From Eledone cirrhosa (lineage: Eukaryota), in NCBI GenBank assembly GCA_964016885.1, contig OZ024741.1, forward strand, positions 337,528,001-337,592,000: DNA of 64,000 nucleotides, written 5' to 3'. Both the position numbers and the translations under genes were made by a program. Below the pieces are notes generated by a model. It saw only the letters and a program-made list of their open reading frames with translations, made no database searches and was not told where the DNA came from. This document shows positions 18,165 to 21,897 of this stretch, in pieces. Each line of letters opens with the position of its first letter. Position 1 is the first letter of the stretch.

Positions 18165-19438
18165 TATCGTTTCTGAATTTGTTTAGCAAGATTCTTTATC
18201 TGAAATTGTGTGTTGAAACCGATATTGTTATACTTTGGGAGGGTCATGTTGCCAATAAGAAACACATGCACCAGTTGCTTTCACTTCAATTTATTATATA
18301 TTTATAAATTTATAAATTTACAAATCTACAAACTTATAAGTTTCTGGTTGGTTGGTTGGTTCCACAACCAGATAGTTGTTTATATATAGTCATAGTCCTT
18401 TCGTCACACACTCTGTGACCTCATCAGTGACTGGGGATTCCTTTCTTTGTTTCTGTGCCTTTCCTTTCTTCTGTCCTACGCCATTTTGTTTCTGTGTGTG
18501 TGTTGTGTGCTCCGTTTGCACATGCGCCACATCCGGGTGTCTGTGTGTGTTTGTGTTCATTTATCTATTTGTTTATTTATTTACATGTTGTTGGTTGGTT
18601 GTTTGTTCAATGTGTGTGTGTGTTTTCATTTTGTCCTTAATTGTAAGTTGTGATGTTGCTGTTCCACTCATATTTTCTATTTAATTTTAATGCTTACTGC
18701 CTCTATAATTTGCCTAAACATTGCATCTTTTCTGTGTGTGGATTCTATTTTTATTTCTATGTTCTCTAATTTACCCTTGTGTTCTATCTTAGCATGTTGG
18801 TAGAGTACAGATGATTCTTTATTATCTTGAAGGTCTCGCCAGTGTTCATTTATCCGTTACCCTATACTACGAGCTGTCTCACCTATGTACACTATATTTT
18901 TGTTTCTACATTGTCCTTCAGTACATCTTATGCTATACACTACATTTCTAGTTTTACAGTTAATATGGGGGCTTATTTTACAGGTTATACATTTCTTATC
19001 TATGCATGAGGGTCTTTGGAACGGGTATGTCTTGCTAATAAGTGTTTTTACGGAGGTACCTGGTCTTTCTACCATCTTAATATTGAGTTTATGTTTATTT
19101 AGGGCCCTTCTAAATTTGTAGGCTAGTTCGCCTCTAGGGGTTGTATTGATGAACATTACACTCTGGTATTTATTGCTATCATACCATGAGTTTATTCTAT
19201 TGGCCTTGTTCCTAGTTCTTTCTATTCTATTCCAAAATTTGCTCCTATACAAGGGGCAGGTCCCGTTTATGTCATTATTTATCATTTTTTCCCATTTGGT
19301 TCTGGCTCCTCTATACACTCTGATTCTATCTCTCTGATTGTAGCCAGAGAACTGCATACGGTGGATGAAGTGTTGTATGTGTCTCTCTAGTTCTTCGGGG
19401 TTGCACATGCGGGACACATTTCTCATCACCCGTACCAA
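18165..19438 (-). mobile_element. Penelope-like element 3' part (thumb, Cys-rich linker, GIY-YIG, 3' UTR/pLTR)
   Basis: CIDKKCITC...NCKTRNVVYSIRC...YIGETARSIG*RINEH; 3' UTR carries an HHR; terminus abuts (TA)n. Confidence 0.92.
18388..18432 (-). ncRNA. Type I hammerhead ribozyme in PLE 3' UTR
   Basis: Minus strand: AGTCA-CTGATGA-G-GTCACA/GAGTG/TGTGAC-GAAA-GGAC-TA-TGACT; perfect 5-bp stem I, 6-bp stem II, minimal stem III, CUA site. Confidence 0.88.
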
Positions 19439-20186
19439 CAACAACAGACACACAGACACAAACAACAATAACAACAACGCACACATCAACAACAACAACA
19501 ATAGCAACATACCTAGAAACAACAACAACAGACACGCAGACACAAACAACAATAACAACACACACAACAACGATAACACGCGGAGACAACAACAACACAC
19601 ATCAACAACAGCACACATCAACAACAACAACACACACGCATTCAATGCCTCTCACCACCACCACAATCTTAACAAACACACAGACACAGAAAACAAGTAA
19701 TGACAGTAGCACAGAAATCAGAGAAATAAGGGAAAGTAATAAGATTAAAAGGAAAAGGAGAAGGGAGACTAAGGACAAAGAGAATAACCAAGACGAACAC
19801 ACAGACACACAAAATAGGGTAGATAACAACATTGAGCCAGTGGAAAGAGACAGGAGTAATTATGAGAGACATAGAAACAACCATGAGGCTGTTGGTGGAA
19901 ATAGAAATAGAAACAACACAACTAACAATAACAATAGCACTAGTACACATAAAGCAGCAGCCTGGAACTCTCCGTTTTATAATCCCTCCGATAAATCATT
20001 CGACCTGCGACGAGTCCACGCCACGACTTTACCATTTAACAAACGCACGCAGTTGCCGTCGCAGGTCGATGAACAAACAGAAGCACAATTTAAGCTAAAT
20101 CCGAACTTAGAAATATTATAGAACAGTATAACAAGAAGCATAATAGAATAGAGGCCCAGCAACTGGGAGAAAAATCTGCAAATGGC

Positions 20187-21897
20187 TTGCGTAAGCTCAT
20201 GCAGCGCTCACGTAATGGAGAGATAGCATGCTTTCCAACAGACAAGTCTGGCAGATTGTCGGTTGACAGCCTGCCAAACTACATCCAGGCAATGCAACCC
20301 CACATCACTAACACAAGAGAGGTAACACCACAGGAGCATGAGGATAGAGAAAAAGCCCTCAATGCCCATATGGTGATGTGGACGAATATAATGCAGCCCA
20401 ACAAAAGGACGGCCAACAACTTCCAGGCCTGGAACAATGACGTGCCGGCGTTGTATGGGCTTCGAAAAGACCATAAAACGGGCTGTGACCCTGTCGCGGG
20501 ACCACCAACACGGCCAGTCTGTGGAGCTAACATTGCTAGTAACTACAGACTGTCCTACTTCCTCTCCCTGATCATACGCCCCATCATTGAGATGTCCCCA
20601 GATGTATGTGACAGCACGGAGGACCTCCTCAGCAGAATCGGCGTGAGTAACCGATCTGGGGACCTAACAAACTGCATAATAGGCAGTATGGATGTTGTGT
20701 CCCTGTATCCATCTATTGACGTGGATTTTGCTGTGGAGAAATGCGTAGAAATGATCAGCGAGAGCAAGGTTGAGTTCCGTGGGATTGATACCAGTGAGCT
20801 AGGACTTCTACTTAAGCTTACCCATAGTAATAGTTACCTAGACACTTATGACCTTAGCAACCTGTGCCCTACAAGACCAGCAAGAGGCAGACCACCTACC
20901 ATTACCTCAATGGCCAAGAAAACCCACACAGATAGATGGAACGGGTGGACCAGAGCCATACGGACACCCGAAAACCACGATGAACTGAAGAAAATGATTG
21001 CACATGCGGTAGGGGCCAGCATAAAATTAACCCTTAAGGAACATATGTTCAAATTTAATGGAAAAACATATGCCCAAGAGGAAGGAGCAGCCATTGGTGT
21101 TAGCATTGCAGGCGACATAGCTAACTTATTCATGGTATGGTGGGACAGTAGACTTAAACTTAAACTTAAAGAACAATTAGAAGACAGCTTAACCCTGATA
21201 ATGTACTCCCGCTACGTAGATGATATAAACATCGTAGTTAAGACACCCCCACTAGAGAACAGTCAGGAACTAGAGAAAAACACAATGGAAAGCATCCAGC
21301 AAATAGCAAACTCCATCCACCAGAGCATTAGAGTTACTATAGACTACCCAAGTAGACACCCCAACCATCGATTACCTATACTAGACACAGAGCTCTGGTT
21401 AGATACATTTAACAACCAAAAACAAATCCTCCATTCCCATTATGCCAAACCCATGACTTCCAAACATCTGATCCACCGAAACTCGGCCATTTCGGACCAT
21501 ACCAAAATCAACATACTGATTGCGGATTTGGTACGGGTGATGAGAAATGTGTCCCGCATGTGCAACCCCGAAGAACTAGAGAGACACATACAACACTTCA
21601 TCCACCGTATGCAGTTCTCTGGCTACAATCAGAGAGATAGAATCAGAGTGTATAGAGGAGCCAGAACCAAATGGGAAAAAATGATAAATAATGACATAAA
21701 CGGGACCTGCCCCTTGTATAGGAGCAAATTTTGGAATAGAATAGAAAGAACTAGGAACAAGGCCAATAGAATAAACTCATGGTATGATAGCAATAAATAC
21801 CAGAGTGTAATGTTCATCAATACAACCCCTAGAGGCGAACTAGCCTACAAATTTAGAAGGGCCCTAAATAAACATAAACTCAATATTAAGATGGTAG
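20187..21897 (+). CDS. Penelope-like reverse transcriptase (Nematis/Neptune-like), 3'-truncated
   Basis: Open frame with PTDKSG, LYGLRKDHK, PTRPVCGA, SMDVVSLYPSID, GAAIG, YSRYVDD, LPILD; Asn/Thr-rich upstream region 19439-20180 disrupted by stops; ORF runs into RTE sequence at 21898. Confidence 0.9.

Follow-up and report, generated by a model that had tools for sequence, protein, structure and literature searches.

A young but inactivated Penelope-like element with head-to-head arms in Eledone cirrhosa and the long fingers segment of its reverse transcriptase

How does a retroelement copy come to lie in the genome as two halves that point away from each other? This question is raised by a Penelope-like element (PLE) of Eledone cirrhosa at positions 18165–21897 of the window, a 64,000-nucleotide stretch of contig OZ024741.1 (assembly GCA_964016885.1, positions 337,528,001 to 337,592,000, forward strand) to which all coordinates refer. 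The copy consists of two divergent arms that are arranged head to head and share a perfect 370-bp overlap: the segment 19069–19438 (minus strand) is the exact reverse complement of 21528–21897 (plus strand), with 370 of 370 positions identical upon alignment of the arms. The identity drops sharply at both ends of the duplication, resulting in identical translations of both copies, as had been reported in an earlier note made from the letters of this DNA. We propose, with a probability of about 0.55, that the locus arose as a head-to-head PLE insertion with two outward termini, the right end of which was later trimmed by a microhomology-guided deletion.

The short inverted arm (18168–19438, minus strand) is a 5'-truncated PLE copy. 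From 19438 to about 18168 it comprises the end of the thumb of the reverse transcriptase (RT), a C-x4-CxxC-x6-C linker, the GIY-YIG endonuclease (EN) and a 3' region or pseudo-long terminal repeat (pLTR) containing a hammerhead and the terminus, which adjoins (TA)n. Translation and motif scan thus bear out the earlier note, which had named the minus copy as the source of GIY-YIG, hammerhead and terminus. The arm is collinear with an older contiguous copy, being 74% identical to its part at 119–942. The plus arm (about 19439–21897) opens with a CAA-rich stretch coding for Asn/Thr; then come a short conserved segment, a frameshift and 600 open codons for RT and thumb, and the arm ends with the right copy of the duplication, 904 bp short of a terminus. 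A direct tandem pLTR would lie upstream of the open reading frame (ORF), and the plus arm is 5'-truncated before that region. The native order of RT, linker and EN was confirmed by the older copy, a decayed, non-inverted member of a related subfamily (119–2002, minus strand, 74–77% identity), as well as by contiguous database relatives.

At the inner junction the triplet CAA (19436–19438) is either common to both arms or ambiguous. The earlier note had read this triplet as microhomology; it is indeed present, but the next 222 bp contain 32 further CAA triplets, so that it provides no evidence of guided annealing. The junction contains neither a spacer nor (TA)n nor a target duplication. These features bear on the idea that two independent insertions landed back to back, which could draw on the presence of a second insertion of the same family close by (17202–17350). 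Given the bare junction, the identity of the arms and a plus arm without a terminus of its own, we regard such a coincidence as extremely improbable.

The outer end of the minus arm adjoins a (TA)n-rich microsatellite (17976–18167), the likely insertion target. The arm carries a predicted minimal type I hammerhead (18388–18432, minus strand, core from 18427) with 5-bp stems I and II and a predicted cut after 18393. Scanning both strands of the whole window for this motif yielded three complete minimal hammerheads, at 18427 (minus), 32716 (minus) and 32804 (plus), all of them in the termini of this PLE and of a palindrome at 32474–33085; in each, stems I and II measure 5 bp and the distance to the cut site is the same. 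Shuffling of the terminal region reproduced a hammerhead in 3 of 5000 cases, and among the 106 matches of an Rfam scan at E ≤ 1, which were mainly hairpins of microsatellites, there was no hammerhead family. A terminus-only copy of the same family (17202–17350, minus strand, 149 bp) is identical at 147 of 149 positions and has its own (TA)n; it sits 960 bp left of the large element in the same orientation.

The palindrome at 32474–33085 resembles the large element in miniature, with head-to-head arms that each contain a hammerhead, termini that both lie in (TA)n and a centre of about 21 nt, as obtained from alignment and motif scan. The earlier note had related the terminus of the large element to the outer end of this palindrome, and the two share 69 bp at 81% identity (E 3e-12). 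This common segment starts at an ATG (18247) and stays in frame for 22 codons (18182–18247, minus strand), the frame being open to the end. Between terminus and palindrome, 8 of the 12 differences fall on third codon positions and seven codons are changed synonymously (P = 0.019); between the 17202 copy and the palindrome it is 8 of 11 (P = 0.009). The terminal peptide gave no significant match to the N-termini of distant relatives, 227 of 2000 shuffles being equally good. Since the peptide match is no better than shuffles, it is the codon pattern that indicates that the terminus likely contains the ORF start. ORF starts inside the terminus have also been described for Pen2a_Av (PMC3846280) and for the anole element PAc (PMC11167929). 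Beyond the end point of the left palindrome arm, the large element carries a terminal extension of 54 nt (18168–18221, minus strand), for which we adopt the label "tail" from PMC8557442 and PMC11167929; in the palindrome, an extension of 41 nt is present only on the right arm. Upstream of the ORF start, the two termini align poorly except at the hammerhead. Because hammerhead geometry and ORF start are the same while the alignment is poor elsewhere, the sequences place the large element and the palindrome in sister families rather than in one family. Likewise, the similarity of the termini, as a sequence comparison, speaks for kinship and not for mobilisation of the small palindrome by the family of the large element. 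The earlier note had linked the small palindromes to an autonomous PLE mechanism: the head-to-head geometries do match, whereas the link is not novel, such architecture having been described for PLEs in PMC3846280 and PMC8557442, and three ORF lesions (see below) speak against autonomy of this copy.

At its right end, the plus arm is fused to a long interspersed nuclear element (LINE) of the APE-RT type (21898–24300, minus strand, 5' boundary approximate), recognized by Pfam and by comparison with the copy at 25659–28781, against which a loss of about 1.08 kb of its 3' part was measured. We take this LINE to be a member of the RTE-like clade. The possibility that the LINE had inserted into the PLE was ruled out, as its 3' end is the missing part. 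The remainder is not found at the left flank, and no separate piece starting at the break exists within the window. With the LINE 3'-broken and its remainder absent from these places, a deletion is required under any model. Comparison of the junction (21890–21897) with the LINE paralogues showed that the expected LINE continuation matches the PLE end perfectly over 2 nt and, in an interrupted microhomology with one bulge, at 7 of 8 nt. Equal scores were reached at only 0.25% and 0.9% of 2427 PLE positions against the two paralogues. The junction product has the PLE spelling, not that of the LINE. The copy at 25659–28781 contains a 1040-aa open frame and is apparently near-intact, and a third, decayed LINE copy occupies 14745–16659.

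This junction could also be a trace of L1-style twin priming, a single event that would include the deletion of target DNA: a first complementary DNA (cDNA), primed in (TA)n, would have stopped at 19438, the LINE end would have annealed to the RNA at 21897 and been copied 5'-ward, and both cDNAs would have been joined at CAA. As in L1 5' inversions, an inverted 5' part is joined to a sense 3' part with overlap, so that the geometry is exactly the expected one; 7 of 8 nt of the LINE end can pair with the internal site, L1-associated deletions below 10 kb have been described (bioRxiv 10.1101/2024.12.14.628481), and all features would be explained at once. In contrast to L1 twin priming, with a median overlap of 12 bp and quartiles of 4–17 (PMC12016303), the overlap here is 370 bp, no target-site duplication is present and the flanks are unrelated. 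Moreover, a genomic primer annealed to the RNA would be expected to leave the LINE spelling at the junction, where the PLE spelling is kept, and in the sister palindrome each outer end is a terminus and not an internal site. Of the two routes suggested in the earlier note, template switch or twin priming, we thus retain the former, together with fold-back, as one way to the second arm, and consider the latter unlikely in view of the 370-bp overlap and the PLE spelling.

An assembly or library artefact, either a fold-back chimera or a collapse of several near-identical copies, would account for the 100% arm identity; assembly problems are warned of in PMC8557442, and contig fusion was considered for permuted copies in PMC3846280. 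Two chimeric junctions would be needed, the microhomology at the right one is non-random, and the other palindromes of the window have diverged arms (81–98% identity over the whole palindrome), indicating that genuine palindromes occur. An artefact therefore appears very improbable.

The head-to-head insertion that we favour would have gone into (TA)n, and both of its outer ends would have been complete termini. The GIY-YIG domain would nick (TA)n, and the RT would copy the RNA from a site in the pLTR/ORF start until stopping inside the CAA-rich stretch. The cDNA end would then fold back or switch template at 19438 and copy out to the terminus again; alternatively, the opposite strand would prime another cDNA, which would be joined with the earlier one. 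For the second arm, the sequence does not separate fold-back or template switch from opposite-strand priming. The product would be a pair of inverted arms of about 1.27 kb around a 2.09-kb spacer, a large version of the palindrome at 32474–33085, from which a later deletion would have taken 904 bp of the right arm, whatever DNA lay in between and at least about 1.08 kb of the LINE. Long inverted repeats with perfect arms favour deletions. Two outward termini appear to be the product typical of this group, since both ends of the sister palindrome lie in (TA)n and only one of its arms has a tail. Consistent with such a course, an adjacent inverted 5'-truncated PLE copy is called frequent in PMC8557442, self-priming has been proposed and microhomology-mediated deletions disable many copies according to PMC3846280, and PAc in vitro cleaves and extends both strands and shows two internal RT start sites (PMC11167929).

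Several points weigh against this course of events. Two events are needed, where a single one would suffice for twin priming with target deletion; the right terminus that would have been lost is not seen, and the original junction spelling of the LINE was inferred from two paralogues of only about 75% identity. The arms of the small palindrome stop within about 21 nt of each other, whereas here they are 2.09 kb apart, and the route need not be the same; the overlap statistics of L1 may be inapplicable to PLEs. Furthermore, three ORF lesions and two CpG transitions fit poorly with 0 differences in 370 arm positions. Both differences between the large copy and the 17202 copy are CpG transitions in the large copy, affecting 2 of 4 CpGs, compared with 0 of 6 CpGs per arm differing between the 370-bp arms (Fisher P 0.05–0.15). 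This mismatch hints either at a template that was already damaged or at a duplication younger than the insertion.

It is this combination that a DNA-level rearrangement of an older contiguous copy would fit best, with two template switches during replication or repair (at 19438 and 21897) inverting the RT part, duplicating 370 bp and deleting into the LINE; right-junction microhomology and broken LINE would follow from the same step. However, the RT exhibits almost no private decay, and great age of the copy is therefore not required: among 108 conserved RT positions there are 5 differences, 4 of 89 outside the arm, all common to the Octopus vulgaris protein P0001, and 1 of 19 inside, which is conservative. 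Moreover, head-to-head PLE structures are common in the window and in the literature without any such process. We judge this rearrangement to be improbable, and keep the head-to-head insertion as our reading.

As to age, 0 of 370 arm differences set a 95% upper bound of 0.8% on pairwise divergence, in agreement with the youth suspected in the earlier note. The ORF is broken by the frameshift near 20094–20097, a stop in GIY-YIG at 18857–18859 and a 14-nt deletion near 18691, the latter called relative to the older 119–2002 copy, and the term "autonomous" does not apply to this copy. The element is young but dead, and its template may have been damaged already before insertion. Nor is it nearly complete on joining the halves, as had been stated: the joined protein covers 68–76% of each of seven full-length relatives, whose first 217–301 residues are unmatched in all seven. 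The plus copy does supply the RT, in the 600-aa frame, but not the true N-terminal region that had been ascribed to it. Overall, the structural reading of the earlier note is right, and its claims of completeness and novelty are not.

In detail, the plus arm begins inside the low-complexity CAA-rich stretch (19439–19962), which codes for 40% Asn over 86 codons in one frame; P0001 is likewise low-complexity at the corresponding position. RT and thumb follow at 19963–21896 (plus strand), with the catalytic YVDD at about 21213–21224, as delineated by protein matches, alignment and model. The segment 18686–19068 (minus strand) encodes the short linker and GIY-YIG with CCHH-type residues, read from the translation and its alignment to relatives, and holds the stop and the 14-nt deletion. 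The best protein match is the hypothetical protein P0001 (803 aa), showing 71% identity over the whole 600-aa frame and forming the sister row of this RT in both trees that were calculated. Unlike the present copy it has RT, linker and the start of the EN in one contiguous piece, and it is annotated merely as a hypothetical or RT-domain protein. For O. vulgaris, PMC13282606 reports Penelope families with recent activity. In Pfam, the RT gave only a match below the cut-off (E 4.5e-4) and the broken EN pieces gave none, and a sequence search of solved structures returned one weak match only, to a bacterial RT.

We next considered the lineage to which the RT belongs. Between the aspartate of motif A and the glutamine of motif B (20691–21077, plus strand) lie 128 aa, which include a conserved insertion of about 70 aa in the fingers, as derived from alignment, motif parser and model. 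The same spacing was 124–134 in 69 of 69 alignment rows. With the motif parser, 113 of 264 collected relatives had a spacing of 117–148. A contrast set of 89 proteins was seeded from a different PLE fragment of the window, and 61 of them had 55–62; the rest were fragments or unparsed in either set. Hand counting in the text of Fig. S1 and Fig. S7 (PMC8557442) gives 56–60 for Penelope, Nematis and Neptune, about 81 for one Naiad, about 102 and 119 for two Chlamys and about 115 for human TERT. A profile search retrieved 2559 clusters at E ≤ 1e-30, not all of which necessarily belong to the long-spacing lineage; of 144 new matches 61 could be parsed, nearly all with long spacing. Where a parsed match had an EN motif it followed the RT, the two exceptions being a mis-parsed row and a record that appears to be fused. 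The element belongs to a widespread PLE lineage with an insertion of about 70 aa in the RT fingers. Among the relatives listed, 0 of 120 carried a precomputed RVT_1 domain versus 76 of 87 in the short-spacing contrast set, and such RTs are easily missed.

The full RT was modelled with confidence, with a predicted local distance difference test (pLDDT) score of 93, and its best structural matches were telomerase RTs, which made up the top 9 Foldseek rows and the top 12 VIA rows. Alignment to 9shz_A gave a Z of 16.0 and a root-mean-square deviation of 3.6 over 368 aligned residues. Folded alone, the A–B segment reached a pLDDT of 91. Comparison with 48,161 chains brought no match at Z ≥ 5, nor did Foldseek return one at E ≤ 0.001, from which neither a new fold nor a difference from TERT follows. 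Searching the ESM Atlas yielded only unnamed or PLE-type clusters. With the insertion removed, a quick tree of 35 long- and 22 short-spacing rows, drawn randomly from 65 and 46 usable ones, set the two groups apart on a long branch with a support of 99 in the SH-like approximate likelihood ratio test (SH-aLRT), a separation that is partly built in because each set was collected by similarity to its own seed. The other RT tree was calculated without an outgroup. As the trees hold no named PLE reference, they do not establish a new clade.

How does this element compare with the known groups? It shares with EN-containing (EN+) PLEs the telomerase-like RT, a GIY-YIG with CCHH in the same ORF, a pLTR with a predicted minimal hammerhead, a terminus reaching the ORF start as judged from coding-type substitutions, and the optional tail, seen on one arm of the sister palindrome. 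Canonical EN+ insertions, as described in the legend to Fig. 2 of Craig et al. 2021 (PMC8557442), likewise have head-to-head arms, a hammerhead pLTR, an optional tail at one end and a microsatellite target; here, in contrast, the long arm is without its 3' end and passes directly into a broken LINE, and the arm extends 1.27 kb into the ORF. The permuted Pen3 copies of Adineta vaga (Arkhipova et al. 2013, PMC3846280) similarly consist of inverted overlapping 5' and 3' halves from which the ORF was rebuilt by joining, and possess an Asn-rich ORF segment, which in the A. vaga PLEs lies between RT and thumb or between RT and EN, but upstream of the RT here.

The closest resemblance in domain layout is to Nematis, which has a C-terminal GIY-YIG with CCHH, a short CX2-5CxxC linker and, by eye, a similar pre-linker segment (text of Figs S2 and S7, PMC8557442). 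However, Nematis differs in its A–B spacing (about 60 versus 128) and in motif B, which is G-x-[AP]-M-G there and Q-x2-G-G-[PA]-I-G in most long-spacing relatives. The unnamed Nematis-like contrast set lies on the other side of the long branch from this RT, in a tree holding no named Nematis sequence. Naiad/Chlamys and TERT have extra sequence between motifs A and B as well, and the whole-RT model is closest to telomerase RTs; in PMC8557442 the elements with N-terminal EN, unlike canonical PLEs, have an insertion in the fingers. For TERT, the insert is at the same position and its length is near that of human TERT as counted above, with no structural match of the insert obtained. Naiad/Chlamys could be rejected as the home of this element, because their EN is N-terminal and they lack a canonical hammerhead, whereas EN follows the RT here and the hammerhead is present; the insert also exceeds that of the one Naiad counted. 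Neptune was excluded by its distance from linker to GIY-YIG (about 20 residues in Fig. S2 of PMC8557442, versus six here) and by a spacing of about 56 versus 128, Penelope/Poseidon by the lack of a Zn-finger linker before EN, which is present here, and Hydra by the absence of CCHH, a CxCX5C linker, a divergent motif B and no insertion in the fingers domain (Fig. S7 text, PMC8557442), as opposed to CCHH-type residues and the long insert here.

Taken together, a C-terminal Nematis-like EN, a hammerhead and an A–B spacing of 128 aa fit none of the eight PLE clades as described, and eight are still listed in a 2026 preprint (10.64898/2026.07.22.740005). No ninth clade and no paper naming such a lineage was found in the literature searched, a scope that excluded Repbase, Dfam and most subscription papers. 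The fingers insertion of about 70 residues is possibly the mark of a lineage that has no name so far. A tentative reading, to which we give somewhat less than even odds, goes further: the element would represent an undescribed, widespread ninth PLE lineage that has a C-terminal Nematis-like GIY-YIG, a hammerhead pLTR and a preference for (TA)n targets together with a fingers insertion of telomerase length, conserved and gained independently, which would form its own small helical domain and keep these RTs out of Pfam-based annotation. A group with C-terminal EN and a longer fingers insertion, if true, would change the picture drawn in PMC8557442 and bear on how often this telomerase-like trait arose. 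As an inversion, the locus is nothing unusual for PLEs, and it extends a series of examples for which more than one mechanism is conceivable. A young family making both 0.6-kb and multi-kb head-to-head insertions would offer a system in which a survey of junctions could separate fold-back, two-ended and twin priming.

The window contains further palindromes and PLE fragments. Two adjacent palindromes at 35340–35725 and 35738–36340 (81% and 97%) each carry an outward hammerhead-like motif per arm with a two-mismatch core and are possibly head-to-head termini of other PLE families; the latter has a 22-nt duplication at its centre. A 1.26-kb palindrome (53086–54350) has outer arms of 99% identity, (TA)n on the left only and, by eye, a hammerhead-like motif near each outer end that the motif scan did not score. 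The near-perfect palindrome at 38083–38469 (98%, 1-nt centre) adjoins (TA)n, and no hammerhead was found in it. Short palindromes at 2250–2375 and 33356–33431 lie within related sequences (2186–2309 versus 33414–33549, 79%). Decayed PLE fragments at 55047–56400 and 33600–34270 show motifs that by eye are like the Hydra rows in Fig. S7 of PMC8557442, and a hammerhead core is located at 33226–33249. A Nematis-like EN fragment (60526–61100) contains a 177-bp tandem partial duplication (60526–60702 and 60756–60932), and its relatives have short A–B spacing.

A 408-bp tandem array (28971–32126) directly follows the LINE at 25659–28781, its copies being 100% identical over the 300 nt compared. Minisatellite arrays at 5103–7000, 12246–12792 and 40754–42100 have units of 49, 48 and 28 bp, respectively, and the 48-bp unit is similar to part of the LINE 3' region. 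Finally, a 266-bp repeat occurs at 14192–14455 and 17689–17954 with 91% identity, each copy having a CTGAAGA...GAAA motif and being closely followed by (TA)n.

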